64,000 nt of DNA from Patescibacteria group bacterium (GTDB lineage: Bacteria > Patescibacteriota > Patescibacteriia > JACRDY01): the NCBI GenBank assembly GCA_041650515.1, contig JBAZLA010000001.1, positions 18,710-82,709 on the forward strand, written 5' to 3'. This document shows, piece by piece, positions 5,099 through 61,376 of the stretch (position 1 is its first letter; each line of letters begins with the position of its first letter). A model generated the notes under the pieces. The model saw only the letters and a list, made by a program, of their open reading frames with translations, was not told where the DNA came from and made no database searches. Both the position numbers and the translations under genes were made by a program.

Positions 5099-5640
5099 AA
5101 GGCAAAGAAAAAAGCTAGTAACCTCTATCAATAATTAATTACCAATAAGGGTTACTAGCCTTAGCTTTTAAGGATATTTTTGGCTAAATTTAGCTAAATA
5201 TTTTCCTTTCTTGCCTCTAAAGACTAGCGTAGATTATCGCCTCGTAAGACTAACGTCACGGGGGAATTTGCTCCACTAATCCTCACTGGTAGCCACAGTA
5301 TAAAGCAAGATTAAAATGCTGTCAAGGAATAGTCCACAGTCCACAGTCCAAAACGGCTTTAATAAAGAAAAAACCGCCCCAAAGCGGATTTGTTATTGGC
5401 TCTGCCGACAGCCATCAGCTAACAGCCATCAGCTTATCAAAAACTCCACCATCGGCAGGCTGAAGATGATCTGGCTAAAAGCTAAGTGGGTGTCCGCAGT
5501 ACAGGCGCCACGGCGCTAGACAATGTGAGACTCCCATTACCAGATGATGACCCAGAACATAATCAACCCAAATGTCCGATAGTGAAGCTCGTCTTTATTA
5601 TACTCCTGCTGGTAAAAGGACGTCAACTTTGTTTAGTACA

Positions 5641-6222
5641 CAGTGCACAGTACCTAGTACACAGTTTAGCTAGATTTAATTATTTTTTTAGAACGATCTC
5701 ATCGTCGGGATATTAAGATACGATTGCTAATTAATAAACTAAAAACTATGACCACAAAAAGCTATCGTGACCTAATCGTTTGGCAAAAAAGTCTAAATTT
5801 GGTTTTAGCCACCTATGAATTGACTAAATGTTTCCCCAAAGAAGAACTTTTCGGGCTAACCACCCAAATCCGTCGGGCGGCTATTTCTATTCCTTCAAAC
5901 ATTGCCGAAGGCTACGGCCGCCGGTCTAACGGTGATTTTCGACGATTTCTCTTAATTGCCAAAGGATCCGCCCTAGAATTAGAGACTCAACTGCTAATAG
6001 CCAAGGAGTTAAAACTAACAGAAGACAACAAATTCACCAAAGCTGAATCATTACTAATTGAGGTGGCAAAATTACTTTACTGTTTTGTAAAAAAAATAAA
6101 ATAGGGATAAATACACAGTAACTAACTTCCCGAGTCAATTACAACCCCAGAGTTCCCTAGATAGACTTGGGAAGTTTAGTTTTTTCTAAAGTACTAGGTA
6201 CTGGGTACTAGGTACTAGTCAA
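5641..6222. mobile_element. Inverted-repeat cassette carrying four-helix-bundle gene 1; arms are GTACTAG/GTGCACA-type heptamer arrays
   Basis: Left arm cagtgcacagtacctagtacacag is the reverse complement of the right-arm type gtactaggtactgggtactaggtactag. Confidence 0.6.
5748..6104 (+). CDS. Four-helix-bundle protein of the 23S rRNA intervening-sequence family (TIGR02436-like, Avd-like fold)
   Basis: Translation MTTKSYRDLIVWQKS...IPSNIAEGYGRRS...ALELETQLLIAKEL is a hallmark of the family. ATG at 5748; the ORF finder begins at a TTG at 5724. Confidence 0.8.
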   Translation: MTTKSYRDLIVWQKSLNLVLATYELTKCFPKEELFGLTTQIRRAAISIPSNIAEGYGRRSNGDFRRFLLIAKGSALELETQLLIAKELKLTEDNKFTKAESLLIEVAKLLYCFVKKIK

Positions 6223-28430: not shown

Positions 28431-28480
28431 GATGTCCGCTGTTCGCTAATGGCTCGCGAAATGCGAACCGCGAACCGCGG
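28431..28480. repeat. Short hairpin with GCGAACCGCGGACAGC-type arms (CGAACCG heptamer family)
   Basis: tgtccgctgttcgc...gcgaaccgcgaaccgcggacagc. Confidence 0.7.
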
Positions 28481-28484
28481 ACAG

Positions 28485-29186
28485 CTATTTAATTAACCCC
28501 TGCTTTCTCAAATATATTTCCGCCCGTTTTAAGTCATCCGGATAGCCGATGGGCAACCAATAATCAGTTTGGACGATTTTAACTGGATAACCATTAACCA
28601 TTTTAACGACTGTTTGTGGCAAGCCAAATTCTTTACCATCCTTAATCGGCGCTAAACTGTATTTAAAAACATTCTCATCCAAAACATAAAGGGCAGAATT
28701 AACTAGGCACTTAGTCCCAGGCATAAGTTCGGTTTCAACAATATCAATCAAATTACCAGCCTCATTAATCATCAAGGCGCCATAATTACGCAATTCTTCC
28801 GCCACAACTTCTTTAGCTAAGATACAGCGCTCTTGCGCTAAACATCGAACGACATCTTTGGCTTGATAAATATCATCCCCCATCAAAACTAAAAAGCGGC
28901 CCTTCAGTAATCCCCGACAACGCCATAGAGCATCGCCGGTACCTAATAATTCTGGCTGAATAACATAACTAATCTGGCGACCATCATATTCATTACCAAA
29001 ATATTTTTTGAGCTGCTCACCCAAATAACCCACCACCAAAATTACTTCATCAATTTCTTTAGGTAATTGCTCAATACTGTAGGCTAACAATGGCTTGCCT
29101 TGCACCGGCAGCATTGGTTTGGGTACTTCGTAAGTTAGGGGCCGCATTCGTACACCGGCACCAGCGGCTAGAATCACTGCTTGCAT
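28485..29186 (-). CDS. Sugar-phosphate nucleotidyltransferase (NTP_transferase family)
   Basis: MQAVILAAGAGVRMRPLT...KPML motif. Confidence 0.85.
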   Translation of the reverse strand: MQAVILAAGAGVRMRPLTYEVPKPMLPVQGKPLLAYSIEQLPKEIDEVILVVGYLGEQLKKYFGNEYDGRQISYVIQPELLGTGDALWRCRGLLKGRFLVLMGDDIYQAKDVVRCLAQERCILAKEVVAEELRNYGALMINEAGNLIDIVETELMPGTKCLVNSALYVLDENVFKYSLAPIKDGKEFGLPQTVVKMVNGYPVKIVQTDYWLPIGYPDDLKRAEIYLRKQGLIK

Positions 29187-32100
29187 TATTTTACTACTAT
29201 ATTAATCAACCGCCCGGGAACAAAAATCACTTTAACTATTTCTTTACCAGTTAAATAACTTTTTACTTTTGTATCCACTAAGACTAACTCTTTAGCCTCG
29301 GTTTCGCTAATATCCGCTTTGACTTGAATATTGGTTCGCATTTTGCCGTTAATCTGGATCACCAAAGTGATTTCTTCTTCCTTAACTAACTCCGGATCAT
29401 ACTTGGGCCAGCTCTGGCAAAAAATACTTTTTTGGTGACCAAGCGTTTGCCACAACTCTTCGGCTAAGTGGGGCGAAAACGGTGCCAAAATTTTTAAAAA
29501 CAATTCCAAATTTTCCTGACTGACTTCTTTGGCTTCTTGAAAACCATTGACCAAAATCATCATGGCCGAAATCGCGGTATTATAGCGCATGTTTTCAATA
29601 TCCTCAGTAACTTTTTTGATTGTTTGATGAACTAATTTGTCGCCTTGTACCTTGCTACTTGTTACTTTTTCTTGAAGCAACCAAACTTTATCCAAAAACC
29701 GCCGCACACCATTAATCCCTTTGGTACTCCAGGGCTTGGTGTCTTCAAGCGGCCCCATAAACATTTCATAGAGTCGCATGCTGTCCGCGCCAAAATCGCG
29801 AACCACATCATCGGGGTTAATCACATTACCACGCGATTTGGACATTTTTTGGCCGTCTTCGCCCAAGATCATGCCTTGGTTGCGAAGTTTGAGAAACGGT
29901 TCAGCAAAATTAATATAACCCAGATCATACAAAACTTTGGTAAAAAACCGCGCATACATCAAATGCAGTACCGCATGTTCCGCTCCGCCAACATAGAGAT
30001 CAACTGGTAGCCATTTATTAATTTCTTTCTGGCTAGCAAACTCTTTTTTGTTCTCTGGATCAGTGTAACGGAAATAATACCAAGATGAACAAACAAAAGT
30101 ATCCATAGTATCGGATTCGCGTTTGGCGGGAGCACCACAAACCGGACATTTAACATTGTGAAATTTTTTAGAATTGACCAACGGCGACTCACCAGTTGGT
30201 TTAAAATCAACATCATCTGGCAATAAAACTGGTAAATCTTTCTCTGGCACCGGGACTAAACCCGAATTAGAGCCTAAAGAAAATTCTTCTAAAATTTCTG
30301 GGAAAGACAACATTCCCACCCGGCGATTAGAATGACCACGGTTATTAAATATTCTCACCCGGGCGCCCAAAGGCTGATAATCTTTTTCGACCGCTAACGG
30401 AATATAAGGATCGTTGTCTGAAAGATAAATAACAATTTCTTTGGCTAGTTTTTTTACTCGGACTAAATCAATTTTAGCTTGATTAAAATGCTTGGCCGCC
30501 TCAATACTATTCACCTCGGCACCGGCCGTTCGCATATTGCTCCAATTCTCCTCACTCTGAGACGGACCGGTCGGCGCGACTAAAATTAATTTTTCTATTG
30601 GTAAACCAGTTACCTGAATATATTGGCAAACAGCCGGGGCGCTCAGGCTGTGAGCGACGATAAAAATTTTATCTTCTTTTTTAAAATTGAGACTCTGCAG
30701 CGCCGCCACCCACTCGGCAATTGTCGGCACGCTAGCATTAGGCAAAATTGGAATTAAAACTTCATAGCCGCTATTTTCTAGTTGCTCTTTGAGCCAAGGA
30801 AACCAATTATCGTTAGCGTGAGCATTAAGACCGTGGGTTAATAAAACCTTAGGTTTTTTCTGAGCACAATGATCACAATAAATCATCGGGATGGGCGCGC
30901 CCCAATAGCGCTGGCGCGATACCAGCCAATCGCGAAGTTTGTACTGCGTTTTTAACTGACCACCGACTTTTTGCGTAATTTTTTTCTTGGCTTCTTCACT
31001 GGTTAAACCATCAAACTCGCCGGAATTAATCATGGTGCCAGTGCCAACCCAACACTTATAAGCTAAATCGCTACTTAAATGGCCATAAGCGCCCGGGCTG
31101 GCCATGCCAGATTCTATCGGACTGGCTGCCATTAAACTTTCTGGTTTAATCACTTCAATTATCGGCAAACTAAATTTTTTGGCGAACTCATAGTCTCGTT
31201 CATCGTGCGCCGGCACCGCCATGATTGCTCCAGTGCCATAGCCAGTCAAGACATAATCAGCCACAAAAATCGGTATTTCTTTATTGGTTGCCGGATTGAT
31301 GGCTCTAATACCCTTTAATTCCACACCGGTCTTGGCTTTAGCTAAATCGGTTCTTTCGATTTCATTCTTCTTTTGGGCCAACTTAATGTATTGCTCAACT
31401 TCTTCCCAATTTTTAATTGCCAATTTTAAATTATTAATCAAACCATGCTCTGGCGCCAGCACCATATAAGTTACGCCAAAAAGTGTATCCGGCCGCGTGG
31501 TAAAAACTTTAATTTTTACTGGTTCGCGAACCGCGGACAGCGAACCGCGGACAGCGAATTCTAACTCTGCTCCCTCACTCCGGCCGATCCAATTTTTTTG
31601 CATCAGCTTAATCGGCTCGGGCCAATCAATTGTATCCAAATCATTGAGCAGTCTATCAGCATACTGAGTCACTTTAAAAAACCACTGCTCTAGGTCTTTT
31701 TGCACCACTTCGTTGTGACAACGTTCGCATTGACCGGCGACCACCTGCTCATTAGCTAGTACTGTCTGACAAGAATTACACCAATTAACTTTGGCTTTCT
31801 TTTTGTAAGCTAAACCGTTTTTATAGAGCAACAAAAAAAACCACTGCGTCCATTTGTAATATGCTGGATCAGAAGTTTTAATTTCGCGTGACCAGTCATA
31901 ACTCAGGCCCAGCGACTGGATCTGGCGTCGAAAAGTTTCAACACTTTTGTCAGTCGTTATCTGTGGATGAACTTTTTGCTTGATGGCAAAATTTTCCGCT
32001 GGTAGGCCAAAAGCATCCCAACCCATCGGGTGTAAGACATCATAACCATTGAGTCGCAGATAACGGGAATAAATATCCGTCGCGGTGTAACCCTCAGGAT

Positions 32101-32251
32101 GACCAACGTGTAAACCAGCGGCTGACGGATAAGGAAACATATCCAAAATATATTTTTTCTTTTGGGGACTCTTGGGCGCTTGGTTAATTTTCTCCTTAGC
32201 CCAATATTTCTGCCACTTGGCTTCTATCTCTTGATGAATATACTTATCCAT
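29186..32251 (-). CDS. leuS: Leucyl-tRNA synthetase carrying an inserted alpha/beta-hydrolase domain (YdeN/RBBP9 family, about 210 aa) in the zinc-knuckle region
   Basis: HVGH (HIGH) motif, TTRPDT editing motif, KMSKS motif. The insert VLLTHGLNAHANDNWFPWL...IVAHSLSAPA...LVAPTGP lies between CDHC and VPVPEKDLPVLLP. Confidence 0.95.
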   Translation of the reverse strand: MDKYIHQEIEAKWQKYWAKEKINQAPKSPQKKKYILDMFPYPSAAGLHVGHPEGYTATDIYSRYLRLNGYDVLHPMGWDAFGLPAENFAIKQKVHPQITTDKSVETFRRQIQSLGLSYDWSREIKTSDPAYYKWTQWFFLLLYKNGLAYKKKAKVNWCNSCQTVLANEQVVAGQCERCHNEVVQKDLEQWFFKVTQYADRLLNDLDTIDWPEPIKLMQKNWIGRSEGAELEFAVRGSLSAVREPVKIKVFTTRPDTLFGVTYMVLAPEHGLINNLKLAIKNWEEVEQYIKLAQKKNEIERTDLAKAKTGVELKGIRAINPATNKEIPIFVADYVLTGYGTGAIMAVPAHDERDYEFAKKFSLPIIEVIKPESLMAASPIESGMASPGAYGHLSSDLAYKCWVGTGTMINSGEFDGLTSEEAKKKITQKVGGQLKTQYKLRDWLVSRQRYWGAPIPMIYCDHCAQKKPKVLLTHGLNAHANDNWFPWLKEQLENSGYEVLIPILPNASVPTIAEWVAALQSLNFKKEDKIFIVAHSLSAPAVCQYIQVTGLPIEKLILVAPTGPSQSEENWSNMRTAGAEVNSIEAAKHFNQAKIDLVRVKKLAKEIVIYLSDNDPYIPLAVEKDYQPLGARVRIFNNRGHSNRRVGMLSFPEILEEFSLGSNSGLVPVPEKDLPVLLPDDVDFKPTGESPLVNSKKFHNVKCPVCGAPAKRESDTMDTFVCSSWYYFRYTDPENKKEFASQKEINKWLPVDLYVGGAEHAVLHLMYARFFTKVLYDLGYINFAEPFLKLRNQGMILGEDGQKMSKSRGNVINPDDVVRDFGADSMRLYEMFMGPLEDTKPWSTKGINGVRRFLDKVWLLQEKVTSSKVQGDKLVHQTIKKVTEDIENMRYNTAISAMMILVNGFQEAKEVSQENLELFLKILAPFSPHLAEELWQTLGHQKSIFCQSWPKYDPELVKEEEITLVIQINGKMRTNIQVKADISETEAKELVLVDTKVKSYLTGKEIVKVIFVPGRLINIVVK

Positions 32252-34308: not shown

Positions 34309-35634
34309 CTAATAGCCTCTAATTTTCATTGCTACCGCCACCCGCTTGATGCCCAAAATAAAAGCAGCGGTGCGCAGATCAATTTTCTTTTCTTTGGCGA
34401 TTGATTCAACACTAATAAAAGCTTTATCCATGACTACTTTTAGCCGTTTAGCCACTTCTTCTTCACTCCAATTTTCCCGATGCAGGTTTTGCAACCACTC
34501 AAAATAAGAAACCGTCACCCCGCCCGCATTAACCAAAACATCGGGGACAACAATTATCCCCCGCTTGTTTAATTTAACATCCGCTTCGGGCGTGGTTGGG
34601 CCATTGGCAATTTCCAAAATTACTTTAGCTTTGATCTTGCCGGCGTTTTGGGCCGTAATCTGATTTTCCAACGCCGCCGGGATCAAAATATCACACGGCA
34701 TTTCTAAAAGCTTGGCGCTAGCCATATGTTTATGTTCCACTTCATCACAAACCGAACCAGTGCAGTAATAACCATCAACCAAGCCTTTTTGTTTTTTAAT
34801 CTTCATTGTGCTTTCTGGGTGGAAAGAATCACCATTGGGTGAGTAGATACCGCCTTTAGAATCAGCTAAGCCAACTACACGGTAGCCAGCTCGATTAACC
34901 AGCTGAGCAATATGATAACCGGCATTACCAAAACCTTGGATAATCACTCGCAAACCACCTTTTGACTTTCGTACGGGCAAGTCGCGACTTGCCCCTGCTT
35001 TCATTTTCTTAACCACGTTTTCTAAAACATAGAACGCACCCTGAGCTGTCGCCGTATCGCGACCAAGCGACCCGCCGATTTCTACCGGTTTGCCGGTCAC
35101 AACGGCTGGTACTGGATAACCTTTAATTTTGGAGAACTCATCCATGATCCAAGCCATAATCTGCGGATTAGTATAAACATCGGGCGCCGGCACATCTTTA
35201 AGCGGGCCAATATATTCCTGAATCGCCTGAACATAGCCTCGAGTCATCCGTTCCAGCTCGCCAACGGACATTTTTTTGGGATCAACTTTGATCCCGCCTT
35301 TACCGCCGCCAAAGGGGATATCCACCACGGCGCATTTGACCATCATCCAAAAAGCCAAGGCCTTAACCTCATTAATATCCGATTGCGGATAATAACGGAT
35401 GCCACCCTTAAACGGACCACGAGCATCATTATACTGCACCCGATAGCCTTCAAAATTCTTGATCTGGCCATTATCCATCTTAACTGGCACAGTAAAATGT
35501 AACGCTCGCTTGGGTGAACGAAGTTTATCCAAAATCTCCGGATCAAGATCAAGATATTTGGCAGCCAAGTCTAGTTGTTTTAAAGCGTTGGTAAATGGGT
35601 TGGCAGTTCGCGGTTCGCGGTTCGCGGTTCGCAT
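34309..35634 (-). CDS. gdhA: Glutamate dehydrogenase
   Basis: Lys-Gly active-site region KGGIRY...GGGKGG. The first 12 codons, starting at the ATG at 35632-35634, lie within the (GCGAACC)n repeat and encode RTANREPRTANP. Confidence 0.9.
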   Translation of the reverse strand: MRTANREPRTANPFTNALKQLDLAAKYLDLDPEILDKLRSPKRALHFTVPVKMDNGQIKNFEGYRVQYNDARGPFKGGIRYYPQSDINEVKALAFWMMVKCAVVDIPFGGGKGGIKVDPKKMSVGELERMTRGYVQAIQEYIGPLKDVPAPDVYTNPQIMAWIMDEFSKIKGYPVPAVVTGKPVEIGGSLGRDTATAQGAFYVLENVVKKMKAGASRDLPVRKSKGGLRVIIQGFGNAGYHIAQLVNRAGYRVVGLADSKGGIYSPNGDSFHPESTMKIKKQKGLVDGYYCTGSVCDEVEHKHMASAKLLEMPCDILIPAALENQITAQNAGKIKAKVILEIANGPTTPEADVKLNKRGIIVVPDVLVNAGGVTVSYFEWLQNLHRENWSEEEVAKRLKVVMDKAFISVESIAKEKKIDLRTAAFILGIKRVAVAMKIRGY

Positions 35635-36120
35635 ATACAAAGTTTAGAAAATTTTAATATTGAATATTTTATACTAGTTTTATTAACTAATTAGCAAATA
35701 CAACTTTATGATGATTAAATCATACAAAGACCTACTCGTCTGGCAGGTAGGAATTGAGCTAGTAATAGCTACCTATGAGCTAACAGAGCAATTCCCGAAA
35801 AAAGAACAATTTGGACTAACCTCGCAGATTAGAAGAGCCTCAATCTCTATCCCATCTAATGTCGCCGAGGGTTATCAACGTAAAACTGATGGGGAACTTT
35901 TACGTTTCTTATTGATTGCTCTCGGTTCGGCCTCTGAACTAGAAACTCAACTTTTTTTAGCCAAAAAATTGAAAATGACATCCGAGGAATACTTTCTAAG
36001 AATAGATAATTTGTTAACACGAGTACTCCAGCTTACCAACTCTTTTATCAATAAACTACGCAAGGATACCGGGCGAACAGCGAACCGCGGCCAGCGAACC
36101 GCGGCCAGCGAACCGCAACA
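35595..36120. mobile_element. Inverted-repeat cassette carrying four-helix-bundle gene 2; left arm (GCGGTTC)x3-4, right arm (CAGCGAACCGCGGC)x3
   Basis: The flanks are reverse-complementary heptamer arrays. The cargo gene is antisense to both neighbours. Confidence 0.65.
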
Positions 36121-36133
36121 AACTAACCGCTGA
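35708..36133 (+). CDS. Four-helix-bundle protein of the 23S rRNA IVS family, copy 2
   Basis: MMIKSYKDLLVWQVG...IPSNVAEGYQRKT...ASELETQLFLAKKL is paralogous to the 5748..6104 product. The C-terminal 20 aa are encoded by the flanking repeat. Confidence 0.8.
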   Translation: MMIKSYKDLLVWQVGIELVIATYELTEQFPKKEQFGLTSQIRRASISIPSNVAEGYQRKTDGELLRFLLIALGSASELETQLFLAKKLKMTSEEYFLRIDNLLTRVLQLTNSFINKLRKDTGRTANRGQRTAASEPQQTNR

Positions 36134-41246: not shown

Positions 41247-41945
41247 ATGAGAACGAATATGTTTATACTTATCAATAAACCCGCCGGTTGGACATCGCAT
41301 GACGTGATTGGCCGGCTGCGCCGGATTACTGGCGAAAAACGCATTGGCCACGCCGGCACGCTTGACCCCTTTGCCACCGGTCTTTTGATTGTGGCCATTA
41401 GTCGCGAATCAACCAAACAAATCGATCAATTTGTAAAACTAAACAAAGAATATCTAGCCACAATTAAACTCGGCGCGACTACTGATACTTATGATAAAAC
41501 TGGAAAGATACAGAAAAGCAAAGAAGCAATAAAACAAGAAAACAAAAATATTAAAAAGGCTTTAGAATCGTTCATTGGCCCCCAGTTGCAGATCCCGCCA
41601 ATGTTTAGCGCCAAAAAAGTAAACGGCAAAAAACTCTACGAATTGGCCCGACGAGGCAAGGAAATTGAGAGAAAACCGAGCCAGATTAATATTACTGATT
41701 TAGAAATTATTGACTATCACTGGCCGGATTTGAAAATTAAAGTTAACTGCTCCTCTGGCACCTATATCCGCAGCTTGGCCCATGATCTGGGAATTAAGCT
41801 GGGTTGCGGCGGGTATTTAGAAGAATTAACTCGAACTAAAATTGGTAATTTTGATTTAAAAAATGCAATTACTCTAGATAAATTAACACCGGAAAACTGG
41901 CAAACGCTAGTTCATAGTACAGAGTACACAGTACCCAGTATCTAA
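41247..41945 (+). CDS. truB: tRNA pseudouridine(55) synthase
   Basis: HAGTLDP catalytic Asp motif. The last roughly 10 codons overlap an AGTACAN heptamer array. Confidence 0.9.
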
Positions 41946-43363: not shown

Positions 43364-43573
43364 ACCTGACGGTTTGTCCGTTTTTTCCGCTATATGTAAG
43401 CAGATTCAAAATCTGCCTATTGGAAGGTACAATCACCCTCGCTTTAGCCTGAAATGGCTAATTTGAGTGTGACAATATATAATAGCATAGTTTGAGATAA
43501 AAGTCAATGAAAACCACCAAAAAACAGCTTAATTTAGCTATTTTTTGGGTTTTGACAGCCTAAAATAGCAACG

Positions 43574-43687
43574 GTGCGGGCCCAATCCCGGACACCCCCT
43601 CCTAACCTCCCCCTTTGCAGGGGGAGGGCCGGTCTCCTCCCCTGCTAAGGGGAGGAACAAGGTGGGGTGTCCGGGATTGGGCCTGCA
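43574..43687. repeat. Palindromic multi-hairpin GC element (25-nt outer inverted repeat enclosing cctcccccTTTGCAgggggagg and ctcctccccTGCTAAggggaggaa hairpins)
   Basis: Outer arms gtgcgggcccaatcccggacacccc / ggggtgtccgggattgggcctgcac. Related to the element at 56758-56878. Confidence 0.75.
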
Positions 43688-43702
43688 CCGACGTTAGCAT
43701 TT

Positions 43703-43762: not shown

Positions 43763-45331
43763 TTAATGTTTAAACGCCCTAATCCCAGTGAAAACCATCA
43801 CCAAACCCTGTTCATCCGCCGCTTTGATTACTGTTTCGTCATTAATCGACCCACCCTGTTGGGCGATAACCGCCACACCGGCTTTAGCAATCAATTCGAT
43901 ACTATCAGGAAATGGAAAAAAACTATCTGAACAAAGCACGCTGCCTTTAACCTTATCACCAGCTTTTTTAATCGCAATCTCCACCGAATCAACTCGCGAC
44001 ACCTGACCGCAACCCACGCCGAGCGTGGTTTTATTTTGGGAGATTAAAATAGCGTTAGAATTCATATTCTTCATCACTTGCCAGTTAAATAATATTTCCT
44101 CAATCTGGGCTTTAGTCGGTTGATTTTCAGTTACTACCTTCAAGTCCTCTTTTTTCAAATGATAAGTGTCATAATCTTGAATCAACATCCCACCCTCTAC
44201 TTGCCGCAGGTTTAAACCGATCTTTTCTGATTTAATTTCTCCCAGCTCAAGAATTCTAATATTCTTTTTTTGCTGCAAAATTTCTAGCGCCCCAGCTTCG
44301 TAGCTTGGCGCCATCACTATTTCGGCAAACACTTTATTGATCGCTTCAGCGATTTTTTTGGTTAGTGGCCGGTTGAGCGCGATTACCCCGCCAAAAGCCG
44401 ACTTACTATCCGCGTCATAAGCTTGCTGAAAAGCAATATCAATATTTTGGTGGACTGATACGCCGCAGGGGTTACCATGTTTAACCACCACCGCCACTGG
44501 CTCAATAAATTCTTTAACAATATTTAGAGTGCGATCGGCATCAACAATATTATTAAACGACAATTCTTTGCCGTGCAAAATTTTAGCGTTAATCACATTA
44601 CAGCCACTATTATCAATCTCTTTATACGCCGCGGCGGCTTGATGCGGGTTTTCACCATAACGACAGTCATAAAACTTTTGATAATTTAAATTGAGTTGAG
44701 CGGGAAATTTGCTATCGGTCACCGGCCACCGGCCACCGGCTGATAGATAATTATAAATTGTTGAATCATAAAGCGCCGTATGAGCAAAAGCGCGTTGCAT
44801 CAATTGCTCACGCAGTTCATAGCTCAAGCCGCCTTTAGTTTTGAGCTCGGCCAACACTTCCGCGTAGTCCGCCGGATCAACCACCACGCCAACCCAGCCA
44901 CAATTCTTGGCCGCGGCGCGCACCATGGTCGGTCCGCCAATATCAATATTTTCAATCACTTCATCCAAACTAACGCCGGACTTCTTAATCACTTGCGAAA
45001 ATGGATAGAGATTAACCACCACTAGATCAATAAATTCGATCCCCTGACTTTTGGCCACGACTTGGTGCTCTTTATTGTCGCGCAAGGCTAAAATGCCACC
45101 GTGAATCTTGGGGTGCAAGGTTTTGACCCGACCGTCCATCATCTCGGGAAAACCAGTGTAGTCGCTGACTTCTTTAACCTTGATTTTAGCTTCTTTTAAT
45201 TTTTTAAATGTCCCGCCGGACGACAAAATCTCCACGCCCATCTTATCTAGCTCTTGAGCGAACTCGACTATGCCGGTCTTATCAAAAACTGAGATAAGAG
45301 CGCGTTTGATTTGAACTAGTGATTGATTCAT
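43763..45331 (-). CDS. purH: Bifunctional AICAR transformylase / IMP cyclohydrolase
   Basis: MGS-like and AICARFT domains. Contains an in-frame (CACCGGC)x3 array at 44710-44730, encoding GGRWPVT. Confidence 0.95.
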   Translation of the reverse strand: MNQSLVQIKRALISVFDKTGIVEFAQELDKMGVEILSSGGTFKKLKEAKIKVKEVSDYTGFPEMMDGRVKTLHPKIHGGILALRDNKEHQVVAKSQGIEFIDLVVVNLYPFSQVIKKSGVSLDEVIENIDIGGPTMVRAAAKNCGWVGVVVDPADYAEVLAELKTKGGLSYELREQLMQRAFAHTALYDSTIYNYLSAGGRWPVTDSKFPAQLNLNYQKFYDCRYGENPHQAAAAYKEIDNSGCNVINAKILHGKELSFNNIVDADRTLNIVKEFIEPVAVVVKHGNPCGVSVHQNIDIAFQQAYDADSKSAFGGVIALNRPLTKKIAEAINKVFAEIVMAPSYEAGALEILQQKKNIRILELGEIKSEKIGLNLRQVEGGMLIQDYDTYHLKKEDLKVVTENQPTKAQIEEILFNWQVMKNMNSNAILISQNKTTLGVGCGQVSRVDSVEIAIKKAGDKVKGSVLCSDSFFPFPDSIELIAKAGVAVIAQQGGSINDETVIKAADEQGLVMVFTGIRAFKH

Positions 45332-54431: not shown

Positions 54432-55409
54432 TTATACCTTACCGAAGTACTTCCGTAAATTCTGCTCTAGCCGCTGATTGGTATCTAAACCGGCGATTGG
54501 AAATTCAAAATTTTGGCCGGTTAATTTTTCATAAATATCAATATAGCGATAAGATAATTCAATCACTAAATCGTCCGGCGCTTCGGGCAAAACTTCGTCT
54601 TTGTACGGATCACAGTGCTCGCGAAACCACAACCGTAAAAATTCTTTATCAAAATATTCTGGCTCTTGGCCGGCCTTAACCCGTTCTTCGTAGCTATTTA
54701 AAACCCACCAACGCGATGAATCCGGCGTATGAATCTCGTCAACCAAAATTATCTGGCCATCAGACGTTTTACCAAACTCATATTTAGTATCCACCAAAAT
54801 TAAACCAGCTTTAGCCGCTAATTCCTGCCCGCGCGCAAAAAGCTGACGAGTGTAATCTGCCGCTTTATCCCAATCTTCTTGGCTCATTAGACCTTCGCTG
54901 ATAATTTCGGCTGACGAAATTTTGCGATCATGCTCATCTGATTTAGTCGTCGGTGTAATCAGCGGCTGATCAAATTTTTGATTTTTCTTTAAACCATCAG
55001 GCAAAACATTGCCACAAAATTGCCGTTCACCTTTTCCATAGGCCGTCCAAACTGCCGTGCTGGTCACACCGGTTAAATAACCGCGAATTACAAACTCCAC
55101 GGGAAAAATTTGGCACTTTTTACCCACTGTGACGTTGGGATCAGGCACAGCAAAAACGTGATTTGGCACAATATCTCTAGTTTGTTCGAACCACCAGGCT
55201 GAGGTTAAATTTAAAACTTGGCCTTTAAATGGCACCGAAGCCAAAATCCGATCAAAAGCTGACTGCCGATCGGTGGTAACTAGAACTAATTTATCCCCCA
55301 AATCATAAGTATCGCGCACTTTGCCGCGACGTTTACTACCTAGCCACGACAAATCTGTCTCAGTTAGACAATTTTTTAGACTGGCTTTGATTAGTTCCTT
55401 CTTATTCAT
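54432..55409 (-). CDS. purC: SAICAR synthetase (long form)
   Basis: GKVRDTYDLGDKLVLVTTDRQSAFD motif. Confidence 0.9.
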   Translation of the reverse strand: MNKKELIKASLKNCLTETDLSWLGSKRRGKVRDTYDLGDKLVLVTTDRQSAFDRILASVPFKGQVLNLTSAWWFEQTRDIVPNHVFAVPDPNVTVGKKCQIFPVEFVIRGYLTGVTSTAVWTAYGKGERQFCGNVLPDGLKKNQKFDQPLITPTTKSDEHDRKISSAEIISEGLMSQEDWDKAADYTRQLFARGQELAAKAGLILVDTKYEFGKTSDGQIILVDEIHTPDSSRWWVLNSYEERVKAGQEPEYFDKEFLRLWFREHCDPYKDEVLPEAPDDLVIELSYRYIDIYEKLTGQNFEFPIAGLDTNQRLEQNLRKYFGKV

Positions 55410-55421
55410 AATTCGTAATTC

Positions 55422-56750
55422 TTAATTCGTAATTATTTTCTGTATTTCCTGTGAATAAGGATTAGCTAAAATATTTTTTTGAATTACTTCTTGAATCTTA
55501 TTTTCTGGACCAGTTAATTGCCATAGGGTGCGCTTGGTGACCCTACCCACACCTTTAATACCCAGCCGCTCGGTCAAGGTCCCGAGTTTACTTTGGCCAA
55601 TCACATCATCTTTATATTTAACTAAATAATTGGCCGCCTGATTCACTATTTCGGCTTGATCTATATCTGACCAACTACCATCTTTATTAAATTTTTTAAG
55701 TCCAGCGGGAAATTTAACGTAAGCAATTTCCTTACTGGTATTAAGCAGTTCATTTGATAAAATAATTTCCTTGATGAGCTGTCGACTGTTGGCTGTTGGC
55801 TGTTGGCTAAGCTCAACTTCCCAGTGACTTTTCTTTTTAATATCAACATCGGTATAACCTAGACGTTTAACCGCGCTATCCAGCGTCCGCGCCTCATTAT
55901 CAGTAATAATTAAATCCACAAAAATCTCCACCGAGTTCGGCGCCGGTTGATAAACCGACAACTCACTAACCTCTTTAGGCTGGTATTCTAACTTTTGACT
56001 TTTGACTTTTGACTTTTGACTTATATATTCCCGCAAGCTCTCAAAAATACACTGCCCGTCAGCCGTCCGCTCGGGGTGCGGCATAATCGCCATGACATTA
56101 CCCACGGGATTGCAAACAGCGGCTAAATTGTAAATCGCGCCATTGGGGTTAGTGGGAAAATCTTCTTTAATCTGACCCTGCTCGTCACAGTAGCGCCAAA
56201 CAGTCTGACCGTTCTGAATCAATTCTTGGAGTAAACTTTCTTCCATCATAAACCGACCTTCACCATGAGCCACCGGTAAACGAAAACGATGTTCTTTTTC
56301 TATATTATAGTTAAAAGCACAGCGACCCTTGGGCACGTCATTCTTAATATTAACCCAGGTGTTATAGAAACCAGTTCCCAGCACTTTGCCGTCTTGGATC
56401 CGTTTATTAACTGCCAGTGCCGCGGCTAATTTCTCGCCGGTCACTCCTGGCACTAAGCCAGATTCCAGAACAATCTGAGCACCATTACAAATCCCTAATA
56501 CTGGCTTACCCTTAACGGCTTGCGACTTAATCACCGCCATCAATGGATCAAGCGAGGCAATCATTCCCGACCGCACCCGGTCTTCATAACTAAAACCGCC
56601 GGGGATGATATAACCGTCGTAATTATCTAGTTTGCTATAATCATCATTCCAACGAAAAAACTCACCCTGCATGCCCGCAGCGTTAACCGCCCGCCGAGTT
56701 TCATACTCGCAGTTTAGACCGGGAAATTGAATTATGGCAATTTTGATCAT
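55422..56750 (-). CDS. purQ: FGAM synthase PurQ (glutaminase) fused to C-terminal PurS-like domain(s)
   Basis: N-terminus IKIAIIQFPGLNCEY with the GICNGAQ Cys motif. C-terminus VEIFVDLIITDNEARTLDSAVKRLGY...ANPYSQE is PurS-like. The linker is encoded by a (CTTTTGA)x4 array. The true start is the ATG at 56750; the supplied ORF runs on into the palindromic element. Confidence 0.85.
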   Translation of the reverse strand: MIKIAIIQFPGLNCEYETRRAVNAAGMQGEFFRWNDDYSKLDNYDGYIIPGGFSYEDRVRSGMIASLDPLMAVIKSQAVKGKPVLGICNGAQIVLESGLVPGVTGEKLAAALAVNKRIQDGKVLGTGFYNTWVNIKNDVPKGRCAFNYNIEKEHRFRLPVAHGEGRFMMEESLLQELIQNGQTVWRYCDEQGQIKEDFPTNPNGAIYNLAAVCNPVGNVMAIMPHPERTADGQCIFESLREYISQKSKVKSQKLEYQPKEVSELSVYQPAPNSVEIFVDLIITDNEARTLDSAVKRLGYTDVDIKKKSHWEVELSQQPTANSRQLIKEIILSNELLNTSKEIAYVKFPAGLKKFNKDGSWSDIDQAEIVNQAANYLVKYKDDVIGQSKLGTLTERLGIKGVGRVTKRTLWQLTGPENKIQEVIQKNILANPYSQEIQKIITN

Positions 56751-56757
56751 ATCTTTA

Positions 56758-56878
56758 GTCCCTCCCCTTTCTAAGGGGAGGGCAGGTGGGGTTGGCCGAG
56801 GTTTCGGTGGTAGTTCTAAGATAATTACCACCTTAGTCTCCGGCAACCTCCCCTAGCCCCTCCTTGGAAAGGAGGGGA
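56758..56878. repeat. Palindromic multi-hairpin GC element, second copy of the 43574 family
   Basis: ccctccccTTTCTAaggggaggg and ccccTCCTTGGAAAggagggg hairpins, and shared aaggggaggNcaRggtggggt. Confidence 0.7.
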
Positions 56879-57900: not shown

Positions 57901-58887
57901 TTATAATAGTTCTTTGATCTCCTTAATTATATTTTCATCAACTTCTAAGTAACCTTTCTTTAAATTTTCTTTTCTAATTCTAGCGCTTTGTTCACCGGGC
58001 AGAAATATTTCCTTGACTCCCGGCGCTTTGCGCGAATTTTTCACTTCCTTAATTAACTTTTTGATCTCTCCGCCAAATTCGCCCAGTGGTATAAATACCT
58101 GCGGATCAAAACAGAAAAACAAAAATCCACGGGTAGTATTGGGTTCAATTTTAAACATACTACGGGTTAATATCTCCATCATTAATCCTAAAGCATATCC
58201 TTTATGACCGTCCCGGCCATCCAGGGGCAACAAAGCGGTAACGAGGTTTGGATCGGTTGTCAGCTGGCCATCTTTATCCAAGGCAGTATCGGTCGGTATT
58301 TTTTGGCCTATTTTAGCCGCTAAACGCACTTTACGCATGGCGATCTTAGACGTGGCAATATCCATCACAACCGGCGCATCTTTAGCCGGTATGCCGATAG
58401 CAATCGGGTTAGTACTTAAGACGGCATCGATCCCGCCCACTGGCGCTACTAACGGTCCGCCGCCATAATTAAAAACAAAACCAACTAGATTATTTTCCGC
58501 CATCATTTGCGCGTAAGTTCCCGGGACTAGATAAGAATGCATATTATAAATTCCCATCATGGCTATGCCATTCTGGCGAGCTTTCTCCATTAAAACCGGC
58601 ACATATTGCTTGCAAACTATCTGACCCAAGTTTTTCTGACCATCAATATATAAATAACTTTCCGTCTCTTTAATAATTTTTGCCTCGCCCTCGGGTTCAA
58701 TCTTTTTGGCCACAAAACCTTTGAATGAATTAAGGCCATGGCAAGTCCGGCCAGATATTTCATTACCCAAACACTCATCAACTACTGTTTCAGCGTCTTG
58801 GGCGCTCAGACCTTTCTTGATTAAAACCGCCAGACACATCTTTTTTATTTCTTCAATTTTGATCTTCATAAATGTCGCTGTTCGCAA
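57901..58887 (-). CDS. Ldh_2-family (malate / L-lactate / sulfolactate-type) NAD(P)H dehydrogenase
   Basis: Length and motifs (HGLNSF...GGGP...) fit PF02615. Confidence 0.7.
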   Translation of the reverse strand: MRTATFMKIKIEEIKKMCLAVLIKKGLSAQDAETVVDECLGNEISGRTCHGLNSFKGFVAKKIEPEGEAKIIKETESYLYIDGQKNLGQIVCKQYVPVLMEKARQNGIAMMGIYNMHSYLVPGTYAQMMAENNLVGFVFNYGGGPLVAPVGGIDAVLSTNPIAIGIPAKDAPVVMDIATSKIAMRKVRLAAKIGQKIPTDTALDKDGQLTTDPNLVTALLPLDGRDGHKGYALGLMMEILTRSMFKIEPNTTRGFLFFCFDPQVFIPLGEFGGEIKKLIKEVKNSRKAPGVKEIFLPGEQSARIRKENLKKGYLEVDENIIKEIKELL

Positions 58888-59024: not shown

Positions 59025-61376
59025 CTATAATTTACTTCTTAACCCCTCCAGCCAAACTCGGGCCATTGTTGAAATATCTAAATTAATCCAATCATTAATT
59101 TTAAACTGACCATCAGCTGTGGTCTGACCCAGCTTCTGGGCTTGAACACCAAATTGGTTCATGATATCTTTAAACTTTTTTTCATCACTGACTTCGCAAA
59201 CAAACCCACCCGTTTCGGAAAATAGAAACTCAAAATTTTTGACTTTTGACTTTTGACTTTTGACTTCTATTCCCATCCGCTTTTCTCCGTGTCCGCCAAA
59301 ACACATCTCCGCTAATGTCGTCACTATTCCACCATCAGAAATATCGTGGCAAGCATTCACCACGCCCTGACTAATACTCTCCGCCACCGCCCAAATCTGA
59401 TTTTGGACCTGGGTAAAATCCGGTTTGGGTAGATTAGCCCCGAGCTCACCAATCAAATCATAAAGCACTGAACCGCCGAGCTCATCTTTTCTTTCACCAA
59501 CTAAATAAATCGCGCTACCCGGTTTTTTAAACTCCATGGTGACGGCTTGATTATAATCAGCTAACCGACCAACACAAGCAATAATCGGCGACGGCGCCAC
59601 GCTACCATTTTTTGATTCATTATAAAAACTAACATTACCCGAAATAATTGGGACAGCATTTTCTGGATATTCTTTGAGGTGTATACCTTTGCACGCCTCG
59701 GCCACGCCTTTGGTGCCTTGGACAAACTCCCACATCTGCTCGGGCTTTTCAGGATTACCAAAACAAAGACAATCCGTAATACATTGTGGTGTCGCGCCCA
59801 CCGCCGCCACATTGCGCATGGCTTCACAAACCGCGTTGGCACCGCACCAATAAGCATCAATCAGGCCATAACGGGGGTTGTGATCAACGGCTAGTGCCAT
59901 ACCCACTTTTTTGATCTCGTCAGGCCATTCTGGCTCTAAAAATGGCGCCAAAACACCGGCATCAGCTTGGCCCGACTCAATAATAGTTTGGCCTTGAACC
60001 TGCTTATCATATTGCTCATAAACTGCTAGGCGCGAGGCCACATTCTCGTGGGCCAAAACGTCTAGAACAGTTTTATTCAAATCTAAATTAGCTAATTTGC
60101 TAGAATCTGGTTCGGTCAAATTTTTCGTCCCCGGCAAATACTCGCGATTGTAAAGCAGACCTTCAGTCACCTGCTTACTTGGCGCATCAACTATTTTGGT
60201 GCCTTGATAATAGACCACATAATTACCATTGGTCACTTTGCCAATCACTGACGCCTGCGCGCCTTCGGATACTTTAGGCAGCGCCCAGCGCTCATTATAA
60301 TGAGAAACAATTAACGACGTAACATCAGGATGAGCTACCCACATAAACCGTTCTTGTGTTTCGGAACATAAAACCACCGATGGGTGTAAACCAGCCATCG
60401 AAATATGAACTTTTTCTAAATCAATATCCGCTCCCATCCCGGCACTATCCACTAGCTCAACCGAAGCACAACAAACACCGCCGGCGCCTAAATCTTTAAA
60501 ACCAACTTTAGCTAACAAATTTTTTTCTTTCAAAATTTTAAAAAGTTCGTAGGTGCTCTCAAGTAAATGACGTTTTAAAAAAGCATTGGGCTCCTGCACT
60601 GCGCCTTTATTTTGTTCTTTCTGCGTTTCGTCCAGCTCGAGTGAAGCAAACGATGCGCCACCAAAGCCAGAATTATCAGTCGGCTTGCCAACCAAAATGA
60701 TGTCATAACCTAGACTGTCTTTTGGCGCGCGAGAATGAATAACGTCGGATTCTCTTATCACCCCAATTGAGACAACGTTTACCAAACAATTGTCATTATA
60801 TGATGGATGGTAATATAGATCGCCAGCAATATTGGGTACGCCAATCGGGTTGCCATAGCCAGCAATGCCGCTAACCACGCCATCGTGAATCCATTTAGTT
60901 TTGTGAGTTTTAATATCGCCAAAACGAAGCGGATCAGCGCAAGCAATTACCTTGCCACCCATACAGATAACATCGCGGACAATACCGCCAATGCCGGTAG
61001 CCGCGCCTTCGTAGGGCACAATCTGCGAGGGATGGTTATGACTTTCATGAGAAATAATAATGCCATAACGATCACCATTGTTATCGCGAGCGATTTCAAT
61101 AATCCCCGAGTCCTCTTGTGGCCCAAGAATAACATTTGGCGCATCAGTGACAAACTGCTTAAGATGGGGCCGGGAACTTTTATATGAACAATGCTCGCTG
61201 CCTTCAATCCCCCAAACAACGGCTTCAGTCAGGGTTGGCGGTCGCTTAAGAATCTCAGTCTCAACTTTGCGCGCTTCAGCCACAGTTAAAGCAATGCCGT
61301 ATTTTTTTAGCATTTGTTTTACCTCATCATCCGAGTATTTGCTGAATTCGAGAATTGTTTCTTGAAATTGACTCAT
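59025..61376 (-). CDS. purL: FGAM synthase II (PurL, small form)
   Basis: Two AIRS and AIRS_C repeats. Contains an in-frame (TTTTGAC)x4 array at 59236-59267, encoding EVKSQKSKVK. Confidence 0.95.
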   Translation of the reverse strand: MSQFQETILEFSKYSDDEVKQMLKKYGIALTVAEARKVETEILKRPPTLTEAVVWGIEGSEHCSYKSSRPHLKQFVTDAPNVILGPQEDSGIIEIARDNNGDRYGIIISHESHNHPSQIVPYEGAATGIGGIVRDVICMGGKVIACADPLRFGDIKTHKTKWIHDGVVSGIAGYGNPIGVPNIAGDLYYHPSYNDNCLVNVVSIGVIRESDVIHSRAPKDSLGYDIILVGKPTDNSGFGGASFASLELDETQKEQNKGAVQEPNAFLKRHLLESTYELFKILKEKNLLAKVGFKDLGAGGVCCASVELVDSAGMGADIDLEKVHISMAGLHPSVVLCSETQERFMWVAHPDVTSLIVSHYNERWALPKVSEGAQASVIGKVTNGNYVVYYQGTKIVDAPSKQVTEGLLYNREYLPGTKNLTEPDSSKLANLDLNKTVLDVLAHENVASRLAVYEQYDKQVQGQTIIESGQADAGVLAPFLEPEWPDEIKKVGMALAVDHNPRYGLIDAYWCGANAVCEAMRNVAAVGATPQCITDCLCFGNPEKPEQMWEFVQGTKGVAEACKGIHLKEYPENAVPIISGNVSFYNESKNGSVAPSPIIACVGRLADYNQAVTMEFKKPGSAIYLVGERKDELGGSVLYDLIGELGANLPKPDFTQVQNQIWAVAESISQGVVNACHDISDGGIVTTLAEMCFGGHGEKRMGIEVKSQKSKVKNFEFLFSETGGFVCEVSDEKKFKDIMNQFGVQAQKLGQTTADGQFKINDWINLDISTMARVWLEGLRSKL

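Follow-up and report, generated by a model that had tools for sequence, protein, structure and literature searches.

Heptanucleotide tandem arrays lie in frame within loops and termini of conserved enzymes in a Patescibacteria genome

Introduction

The gene for a putative PurQ-PurS fusion protein (55422..56750, minus strand; start at MIKIAII), in a 64,000-nt stretch of DNA referred to here as the window, carries two tandem arrays of 7-nt units, and the unit of one of them recurs in the purL gene of the same window. This raises the question of how arrays whose unit is not a multiple of three come to lie in conserved enzymes, and by what process they are formed. To our knowledge, heptamer tandem repeats, whether described as STRR (short tandemly repeated repetitive) sequences or as heptanucleotide LSSRs, still lack an accepted origin or function decades after their discovery. 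The host of the window is a Patescibacteria (CPR) genome, and the best relatives of its PurL, PurQS and LeuS proteins belong to Magasanikbacteria, Komeilibacteria and other Patescibacteria.

Results

The arrays of the window are genuine and lie well beyond chance, with 15 strong period-7 arrays found against 0.05 in shuffled sequences. Among the other periods from 4 to 15, there was an excess at period 14, period 6 was marginal (2 arrays against 0.15 expected) and the rest showed none; mono- to hexanucleotide repeats as a whole showed almost no excess, the two period-6 arrays being the only ones. Non-coding DNA holds 17 of the 25 arrays, at a density of ∼2.2 per kb compared with 0.14 per kb in coding DNA, and the median array length is 29 nt. 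The arrays also fall under the definition of an LSSR, a run of a 1–11 nt motif that is longer than expected for the genome.

The intergenic arrays are the arms of imperfect hairpins, with an arm of ∼30 nt; of 11 spacers scanned, 9 contained arm pairs in inverted orientation. A few unit families (GTAC-type, AGTATGC, GCGAACC, AAGTCAA and GCCAACA) are used repeatedly, at 2 to 7 loci each. One hairpin arm (28455..28490, plus strand) is of the GCGAACC/GCGGACA family and carries the unit seen in leuS, whilst an intergenic (GCCAACA)x4.3 array (5404..5434, plus strand) has the unit of the second purQS array. Thus, coding and intergenic arrays come from the same repeat families, as a sequence-only reading of the window had supposed. 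A further array, (TACGAAT)x4.4 at 55404..55434 on the minus strand, lies across the junction between the purQS stop and the purC start, where variant units give the TAA and the ATG.

Eight arrays are coding. Five are internal, in purL, purQ-purS (two), purH and leuS, and three are terminal, at the N-terminus of GdhA and the C-termini of TruB and the 23S_rRNA_IVP protein. In purL (59025..61376, minus strand), (AAGTCAA)x4.3 at 59237..59266 on the minus strand encodes VKSQKSKVK, which lies within a variable loop of the AIRS_C-type domain at the C-terminus. Array 1 of purQ-purS, (AAGTCAA)x4.6 at 55991..56022 (minus strand), fills a 30-nt slot encoding SQKSKVKSQK in the PurQ/PurS linker. Read on the forward strand, these are (TTTTGAC)x4.3 and (ACTTTTG)x4.6; both are 100% periodic and their common 30-nt core is identical. 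The sequence-only reading had placed both arrays in frame, which is right for these minus-strand ORFs once the positions are refined to those given here. It had also credited the two proteins with the same KSQKSKVK peptide: what they share is the 7-mer SQKSKVK, and KSQKSKVK is found in PurL only (PurL reads VKSQKSKVKN and PurQS reads ISQKSKVKSQKL). Array 2 of purQ-purS, (CCAACAG)x3.3 plus one degenerate unit at 55778..55808 (minus strand), occupies another 30-nt slot, encoding SQQPTANSRQ in a beta-alpha loop of the first PurS-like repeat; the (CTGTTGG)x3 that had been read here on the forward strand is perfect at 55786-55808 and imperfect from 55778.

The PurQ-PurS fusion architecture is widespread. 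Its PurQ half was assigned to Pfam GATase_5, with a Foldseek match to 3d54_D (TM 0.87). The PurS-like half of the window protein gave no Pfam match and no PDB match by sequence, and a Foldseek search with the whole model returned PurQ-type matches only; PF02700 is matched in some orthologs, and the AlphaFold model of the window protein has two beta-alpha-beta-beta-alpha-beta units. In this model the residues of array 1 close a helix and continue into coil, whilst those of array 2 lie in a beta-alpha loop. The heptamer GGGAATA is common to the flanks of the purL and purQS arrays, but a single 7-mer is insufficient to establish ectopic gene conversion between them.

The purH gene (43763..45331, minus strand) has a 30-nt slot at 44711..44740 (minus strand), whose product, AGGRWPVTDS, belongs to the linker that joins the IMP cyclohydrolase domain to the AICAR transformylase domain. 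It is filled by (GCCGGTG)x3 and one degenerate unit, the array proper lying at 44720-44740 and not at 44710-44730, where it had first been placed. The leuS gene (29186..32251, minus strand), which has an inserted Ser_hydrolase domain, carries the previously noted array of 14-mers between its WIGRS and TTRPDT motifs: (TTCGCTGTCCGCGG)x2.4 at 31526..31560 on the minus strand, encoding FAVRGSLSAVRE, or, as alternatively delimited, GCGAACCGCGGACA x2.4 at 31526-31558, encoding the same peptide. This 14-mer recurs in hairpin arms at 28455-28490, 35598-35632 and 36080-36114. The arrays noted earlier at the gdhA N-terminus and the truB C-terminus are also present. The former, (GCGAACC)x5 at 35598..35632 on the minus strand, encodes RTANREPRTAN, residues 2–12 of the protein, straight after the only usable ATG, and is at the same time the left arm of an inverted pair around the 23S_rRNA_IVP gene. 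The right arm, (CAGCGAACCGCGGC)x2.8 at 36073..36116 on the plus strand, is of the leuS-array family and makes up the C-terminus of the 23S_rRNA_IVP protein (35708-36133). In truB, (AGTACAC)x3.6 at 41916..41940 (plus strand) encodes the last 10 residues and is followed by the stop codon.

All eight coding arrays are in frame and lie within length-variable loops or linkers or at termini, and the proposed location in loops and linkers is borne out by the AlphaFold model of PurQS and by the PurH interdomain linker. All eight are free of stops on the coding strand, against a baseline of 0.63; the AAGTCAA unit lacks stops in one orientation only. The internal arrays, of 32, 30, 23–31, 21–25 and 33–35 nt, are not themselves multiples of three, contrary to what had been claimed; it is the 30-nt slot between conserved flanks that is. 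An inverted partner of the coding arrays was sought and none was found, and MITE- or REP-like signs of a mobile element were absent from them, the flanks being ordinary conserved coding sequence. A role as a slippery site for programmed frameshifting was considered and set aside, no canonical X XXY YYZ motif or downstream structure being evident.

The encoded peptides are hydrophilic and SQKSKVK is found in three proteins, a pattern that could arise if selection favoured a peptide repeat, for instance in a flexible linker rich in K, S and Q. However, the nucleotides themselves repeat perfectly, with synonymous positions included, and the repetition runs through all three frames; moreover, the same units occur in non-coding hairpins. 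An assembly artefact would likewise have to account for arrays found in independent assemblies (JGI, ENA and NCBI) as well as in relatives. We find either explanation hardly credible.

The sequence-only reading had regarded the coding arrays as insertions. On this explanation, each would be a net insertion of new repeat DNA, a multiple of three in total, into a loop or linker. A net gain was indeed found in leuS, where the WIGKS..TTRPDT spacing, canonically 19 aa, is 6 aa longer, and at the second purQS site, which exceeds its orthologs by 4 to 6 aa; PurH is 8 to 9 aa longer than two of its orthologs. In other CPR genomes these loops contain inserts that are unrelated, and the leuS unit is shared with nearby intergenic arms. 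Nevertheless, the gain is in no case as large as the 10–11 aa encoded by the array. The loop of PurL has 16 aa, most orthologs having 15 and the closest group 18 (+1 or −2 aa), and the aligned segment has the same length in human PFAS; the PurQS array 1 linker shows no change (0 aa) against about 60 orthologs, so that neither site has gained length in comparisons with 60–78 orthologs. The PurH linker, at 34 aa, is about 3 aa above the median of about 31 and inside the normal range of 19–53. In the related genome L081, a purB array aligns without gaps to all orthologs and with no net length change. Alignment to orthologs had been put forward as the check that would refute insertion if repeat-free relatives carried homologous residues at these positions. 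Because orthologs do carry residues at several of the array positions, this is the outcome for those arrays; for purL and purQS array 1, array-free sister orthologs with equally long loops were found. The claim of insertion thus stands only in part: leuS and the second purQS site alone show a net gain, and the claim is not supported for PurL or the first purQS site. As a general explanation of the coding arrays, net insertion is unlikely.

The age of the arrays also bears on insertion. The purL, purQS and purH proteins of L081 (JGI sample 3300045411; an RVT_1 gene lies at L081:1-206) are 75–83% identical to those of the window in amino acid sequence (73–77% at the nucleotide level), and perfect arrays are present at all four comparable positions, in purL, at both purQS sites and in purH; this conservation of position is drawn mainly from L081, with L082 as a fragment, so that two to three genomes are compared. 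A LeuS homolog search did not recover leuS of the L081 genome, and P0127 proved to belong to a third lineage, L164; the L081 comparison covers purL, purQS and purH. A metagenome scan based on PurB yielded only three relatives, at 56–65% identity, and the L081 contig was not among them. With arrays in the same four places in L081, these four are not recent arrivals in coding DNA but are older than the divergence of the window and L081, which again argues against net insertion.

Whilst the positions are conserved, the units turn over. The purL array is identical at 30/30 nt between the window and L081 (L081:8022-8053), though third codon positions are only 53% identical, whereas the other three arrays have different units, two of them in matching 30-nt slots. 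The slot of purQS array 1 is exactly 30 nt in three genomes with three fillings: the AAGTCAA array in the window, (GTCCAGA)x4 in L081 and, in L082, an array that has become degenerate. At site 2 of purQS, the window and L082 share a homologous (GCCAACA) array that has decayed independently in each, and L081 has a different unit. The purH slot of L081 holds (GCTCGCA)x4.3 in the same place and register as the window array. In-frame arrays of 7- or 8-nt units occur in the same proteins of other CPR genomes, for example (AAAGTCA)x4.4 in leuS of L163, and the AAGTCAA unit of purL recurs in purQS and, outside the window, in leuS of an unrelated genome.

These observations raise the possibility that a dedicated process other than ordinary slippage actively turns ∼30-nt patches into perfect 7- or 8-nt arrays without change of length, by rewriting or homogenising them, both in hairpin arms and in fixed slots of essential genes, across a CPR clade; its agent would be a specialised polymerase, a reverse transcriptase or template-switch repair. 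Different perfect arrays in the same 30-nt slot, and arrays that match completely or not at all when the window is compared with L081, and are not a few substitutions apart, are as such a process would leave them. The narrow range of lengths (the 29-nt median of the window; 26–42 nt for the 8-nt arrays of L081), length-neutrality with respect to orthologs and the near lack of excess of shorter-period repeats also speak for it. However, no candidate enzyme was identified, the site 2 array common to the window and L082 decays by ordinary point mutation, selection alone could hold the slot length, and the comparison spans two to three genomes only. Rewriting is therefore, in our estimation, quite unlikely.

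A 7-nt unit also suggests contingency loci, in which gain or loss of one unit would flip the frame and act as a reversible on/off switch for expensive pathways, purine synthesis among them. Homogeneity is perfect in several arrays, and pur genes, which may be dispensable for a time to a symbiont, hold four of the five internal ones. However, the essential leuS gene also carries arrays, and the hosts (purL, purQS, purH, leuS, gdhA and truB) are not dispensable genes for surface or host-interaction functions. Every array was seen in the ON frame, slot lengths are conserved across genomes, and 4–5 copies are short for efficient switching. No copy-number variation was seen between L164 and L165 (5.8 kb, 100% identical); members of the protein clusters differed in start-codon annotation only, with no variation in array number, and identical array-bearing proteins were found on 3 to 10 contigs from several assemblies. 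Such a switch is highly improbable.

Discussion

The explanation that we think somewhat likelier to be right than wrong is that the arrays are STRR-like repeats, made and homogenised by slipped-strand processes and surviving by selection only in permissive loops. This CPR lineage has an STRR-like system, in which a few families supply the units, 7 nt long here and 8 nt long in some relatives, for arrays of ∼4 units each; most arrays form the two arms of roughly 30-bp hairpins in intergenic spacers. Inside genes, the same DNA-level process, slipped-strand mispairing or template switching with a preferred step of 7–8 nt, would form the array, which would then be homogenised internally. Since 7 = 1 mod 3, an array is read in all three frames in turn, and its survival would therefore need a coding strand free of stops in every frame, a slot that is a multiple of three, and a free loop, linker or terminus. 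Once established, a slot would be inherited, its length kept by selection on frame and loop length, while the unit would drift and be re-homogenised or replaced. This would account for the perfect arrays with different units that related genomes have in the same place. The arrays themselves, their frame and loop positions, the unit families in common with intergenic arrays, the conserved positions, the turnover of units and the nearly neutral length are observations, whereas slippage or conversion as the source and selection as the filter are inferred.

Several observations sit awkwardly with slippage as the generating process. Plain slippage changes the length by 7 nt and thus shifts the frame. 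Loops should lengthen, yet purL, purQS array 1 and purB of L081 show no net length change. The usual slippage products, mono- to hexanucleotide repeats, are almost without excess, and neutral drift does not predict the identity of the purL array over 30 nt or the recurrence of AAGTCAA across genes and genomes. No copy-number variation came to light in L164/L165 or in identical proteins across assemblies, and no enzyme or step-size mechanism was identified.

Within the set of papers searched, nothing relevant linked CPR or Patescibacteria with heptamer or simple sequence repeats. Heptamer arrays are now seen in an unrelated, genome-reduced phylum. Orthologous slots in conserved enzymes act as a built-in ruler: flanking codons set the boundaries, so that constancy of length, the register and the replacement of units are directly visible. 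Because some arrays lie in essential genes, certain explanations fall away, among them elements with a solely regulatory role and unrestrained expansion or contraction. If the pattern is genome-wide, slippage could be separated tractably from conversion or rewriting, and the arrays would be one origin of loops that differ between lineages in CPR proteins. Repeat-encoded loops should be anticipated in annotation and in homology modelling. If rewriting were true, cyanobacterial STRRs and the heptamer repeats with four units known from other phyla could stem from the same process.

Phase-variable contingency loci, for example the SSRs of Haemophilus and Neisseria, also consist of tandem repeats inside coding sequence with a unit that is not a multiple of three. 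The arrays of the window differ in their housekeeping hosts, in being short and fixed at an in-frame length, and in the lack of detected copy-number polymorphism (L164/L165 and cluster members).

The closest likeness is to the STRR sequences of cyanobacteria, reportedly described by Mazel et al. in 1990. Two units of the window are presumably one base from STRR3 and STRR1 (CAACAGC versus CAACAGT, and ACCCAGT versus CCCCAGT). Both systems have 7-bp units in short tandem arrays, with an excess of this unit length, and few, reused unit families dispersed over many loci, mostly as hairpin-forming arrays between co-directional genes. The host here is a member of the Patescibacteria/CPR and not a (heterocystous) cyanobacterium, and the units are only similar to the canonical STRR1-3. 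Cyanobacterial STRRs are 7-bp repeats that form intergenic hairpins (PMC2670836), whereas the window arrays also lie in frame within essential enzymes, in slots conserved between species, and units of 8 nt occur in relatives as well.

In many bacteria, heptanucleotide motifs make up the most frequent class of long SSR, and an origin by polymerase slippage was proposed (Mrazek 2007), as relayed in PMC4679880, and the heptamer repeats of Xanthomonas and Nostoc prefer four units (PMC4692102). The LSSR work summarised there (Mrazek, Guo and Shah 2007; PMC4679880, PMC4692102) agrees with the window in the dominance of 7-nt motifs, their depletion in coding DNA and arrays of about four units. In the same work, the motifs most likely to be located in genes are those with a length that is a multiple of three, whereas the window has 7-nt motifs in housekeeping genes, length-neutral and kept in position between genomes.

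TAACTGA heptamer direct repeats occur in Beggiatoaceae, Cyanobacteria and Bacteroidetes (MacGregor 2015, PMC4679880). These too are heptamer arrays (2–6 copies) and mostly intergenic; some overlap stop or start codons or give repeated 7-aa peptides at protein peripheries, and stop codons constrain their orientation (PMC4679880). That system, however, uses one conserved unit just upstream of start codons, for which a regulator-binding role was proposed, and its ORFs are mostly hypothetical, whereas the window has many units, hairpin pairs and arrays in internal protein loops.

Heptamer arrays in coding and intergenic DNA

Heptamer arrays were present in all six housekeeping genes named by the sequence-only reading. 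The purL array, (TTTTGAC)x4.3 at 59237-59266, and array 1 of the purQ-purS fusion gene purQS, (ACTTTTG)x4.6 at 55991-56022, are 100% periodic, lie in frame on the minus strand and have an identical 30-nt core. They are translated within ...IEVKSQKSKVKNFEF... of PurL (59025-61376, minus) and ...YISQKSKVKSQKLEY... of a 442-aa PurQ-PurS-type protein (55422-56750, minus), and the peptide common to both is SQKSKVK, not the octamer KSQKSKVK originally read. purQS array 2 is (CCAACAG)x3.3 at 55778-55808. The purH array, (GCCGGTG)x3, exists as described but lies at 44720-44740, 10 nt from its first placement. In leuS, a 14-mer array (x2.4; 31526-31558) encodes FAVRGSLSAVRE; (GCGAACC)x5 at 35598-35632 encodes GdhA residues 2-12, and (AGTACAC)x3.6 at 41916-41940 the final ten TruB residues.

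Under one scoring scheme, 15 period-7 arrays were counted in the window, compared with 0.05 in composition-matched shuffles. Among the other periods from 4 to 15, an excess was seen only at 14 (two heptamers) and marginally at 6 (two arrays, 0.15 expected). The arrays have a median length of 29 nt, and 17 of 25 are non-coding (∼2.2 per kb of the 7.6 kb of non-coding DNA); the remaining eight lie in the 88% of the window that is coding (0.14 per kb). Because 7 = 1 mod 3, an array is translated in all three frames successively, so that period-7 arrays 'in other frames', whose depletion had been proposed as a check, are not a meaningful class and the real constraint is the absence of stop codons. 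In all eight coding arrays the coding strand contains no stop codon (baseline for a stop-free strand, 0.63), and for AAGTCAA this is true of only one orientation.

Imperfect ∼30-bp hairpins, whose two arms are the intergenic arrays, were found in 9 of 11 spacers scanned. The intergenic units fall into few families (GTAC-type, AGTATGC, GCGAACC, GCCAACA and AAGTCAA), and the coding arrays are drawn from the same ones. The leuS 14-mer recurs at 36080-36114 and 28455-28490, and as its reverse complement at 35598-35632, with 0-1 mismatches per unit, while purQS array 2 has the unit of the intergenic array at 5404-5434. A search for inverted partners of the coding arrays found none, leaving these solitary; the gdhA N-terminal array doubles as one arm of an inverted pair around a 23S_rRNA_IVP gene. 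Two such four-helix-bundle genes, at 5724-6104 (+) and 35708-36133 (+), are flanked by inverted arrays (5629-5660/6191-6222 and 35598-35632/36073-36116) and look like cassettes within a long stem, by analogy with rRNA intervening sequences. One arm of the second pair, read from the opposite strand, encodes the GdhA N-terminus.

The 12-nt purQS-purC gap is bridged by (TACGAAT)x4.4 at 55404-55434, in which the purQS stop codon comes from one variant unit, TAAGAAT, and the purC start codon from another, TATGAAT. A second repeat type, unrelated to the heptamers, consists of G+C-rich hairpins with 52-55-nt arms (CCCCTxxxAAGGGGAGG...) at 56761-56877 and 43572-43690; the one directly upstream of purQS creates a spurious N-terminal ORF extension, LPETKVVIILELPPKPRPTPPALPLERGG. 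Almost every gene of the window is encoded on the minus strand, and the GC skew stays below zero throughout (-0.06 to -0.20). The segment at 12-20 kb stands out as much richer in A+T (31-33% GC); its products are membrane and glycosyltransferase-type proteins.

Loop length at the array sites

The arrays had been proposed to be insertions at loops or linkers. The location was borne out: in the AlphaFold model of PurQS (mean pLDDT 94), array 1 covers the end of the final PurQ helix and continues as coil, array 2 falls within a beta-alpha loop, and the purH array lies in the interdomain linker. A net gain in length was seen only in leuS (+6 aa relative to the canonical 19-aa spacing) and at purQS site 2, the beta-alpha loop (+4 to 6 aa). 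The PurL loop, from a conserved G to LFSETGG, has 16 aa, versus 15 in most of 78 aligned orthologs and 18 in the closest group, and the aligned segment equals human PFAS in length. The PurQS linker (site 1) is as long as in ∼60 orthologs and the two nearest relatives. The PurH linker, at 34 aa (median ∼31, range 19-53 in 55 representatives), matches that of Mycobacterium tuberculosis PurH. Neither net gain reaches the 10-11 aa encoded by the arrays, which thus largely take up pre-existing loop length. A period-8 purB array (KIKEIKRYSDKEIKK) in a related locus, L081, aligns without gaps to the window (QIKEVKRYNSQETKK) and to all orthologs, and in another CPR genome the canonical-length LeuS hairpin is itself encoded by a degenerate heptamer array.

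In LeuS (29186-32251), residues 470-655 also form an inserted domain, an alpha/beta-hydrolase of the Ser_hydrolase family (PF06821). CPR orthologs have inserted domains of several types (hydrolase, NUDIX, Ham1-like, transposase-like), placed at this position or at the WIGKS..TTRPDT hot spot; in some, that hot spot has grown from 19 to ∼240 aa. PurQ-PurS(x2) fusions of ∼440 aa are widespread, lying downstream of purL in >60 loci (Patescibacteria, Marinimicrobia/Fidelibacterota and others); a Pfam search of the window PurQS (55422-56750) did not detect PurS. An Ldh_2 family (malate/L-lactate dehydrogenase-like) gene at 57901-58887 separates purL from purM in the pur operon, and L081 has an unrelated 175-aa ORF there.

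Conservation of array positions among relatives

Genomes were compared using one 21-kb relative, L081, plus fragments. The L081 pur cluster is syntenic with the window; purL, purQS and purH are 75-83% identical in amino acids and 73-77% in nucleotides (∼52% at third positions). Arrays are present at all four comparable positions. The purL array, (AAGTCAA)x4.6, has the same nucleotide offset, 2110, and is 30/30 identical; the only other fully conserved 10-codon stretch of purL is the catalytic motif. At purQS site 1, the window, L081 and L082 (a fragment of another relative) all have a slot of exactly 30 nt between 'gaa tay ata' and 'tta naa tay cag cc', filled respectively by (AGTCAAA)x4+AG, (GTCCAGA)x4+GC and a degenerate AAATTTA-like array. 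The purH array begins directly after 'tca' in the same register in both genomes, with units (GCCGGTG) in the window and (GCTCGCA)x4+GC plus one additional codon in L081. At site 2, the window and L082 have the unit (GCCAACA) and differ in which units have decayed, which reads as ordinary divergence; L081 has a different unit and a longer slot. The slots are therefore inherited; their arrays can decay, and a whole array can also be exchanged for another or homogenised anew. L081 further contains 8-nt units in inverted intergenic pairs and the in-frame purB array (284-361, 12701-12773, 15151-15240, 13941-13975), and an RVT_1 reverse-transcriptase gene at its edge (1-206).

The closest PurL, PurQS and LeuS relatives are from Magasanikbacteria, Komeilibacteria and other Patescibacteria, and the source protein itself is listed under 'Patescibacteria group bacterium'. 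Of 24 perfect period-7 arrays in 1.97 Mb of fetched loci, 15 are in the window and near relatives. In Komeilibacteria-like relatives, PurQS and PurL likewise contain in-frame arrays of 7- or 8-nt units, some at orthologous sites with different units. The leuS of an unrelated CPR contig, L163, contains five heptamer arrays, of which (AAAGTCA)x4.4 encodes KVKSQKSKVK at the same hot spot as the window array. Neutral drift does not explain the recurrence of AAGTCAA-type units in purL of two genomes, purQS and leuS. Different inserts occupy exactly the PurL loop (L011, L012, L034) and PurQS linker (L004, L009, L015-L017) in other CPR genomes; these inserts, e.g. CHSLANCHSERSEESVLSKNK and TGRGATCCALTK, look like translated dispersed repeats.

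Origin of the arrays and comparison with known repeats

Phase variation by the arrays is unlikely, since the genes that carry them are essential, all arrays seen are in the ON frame, the slots are conserved and independent samples showed no array variation. The best-supported reading is a lineage-specific process of the kind behind short tandemly repeated repetitive sequences (STRR) or long simple sequence repeats (LSSR). Arrays would arise by slipped-strand mispairing or by template switching in steps of 7-8 nt and would be homogenised internally, with selection restricting them to permissive loops, linkers and termini. A polymerase-slippage-type origin has been proposed for heptanucleotide LSSRs (Mrazek 2007, as cited in PMC4679880). 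Simple slippage is, however, strained by four observations: the arrays are length-neutral, they are ∼30 nt with 7-nt and 8-nt units alike, the purL array is conserved in every nucleotide, and there is almost no excess of shorter-period repeats. Length-neutral conversion or rewriting is therefore retained as a live alternative.

Heptamer repeats are known, as are their bias towards intergenic DNA, their preference for four units and their occasional translation at the periphery of proteins (PMC4692102, PMC4679880). Our literature search found no report of them in Patescibacteria; this occurrence is apparently new, as are their placement inside essential enzymes and the conservation of slot positions between species despite unit turnover. 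Cyanobacterial STRR, of unknown function, are 7-bp repeats that form hairpins between genes (PMC2670836), and by this published description the intergenic arrays of the window are alike in anatomy.
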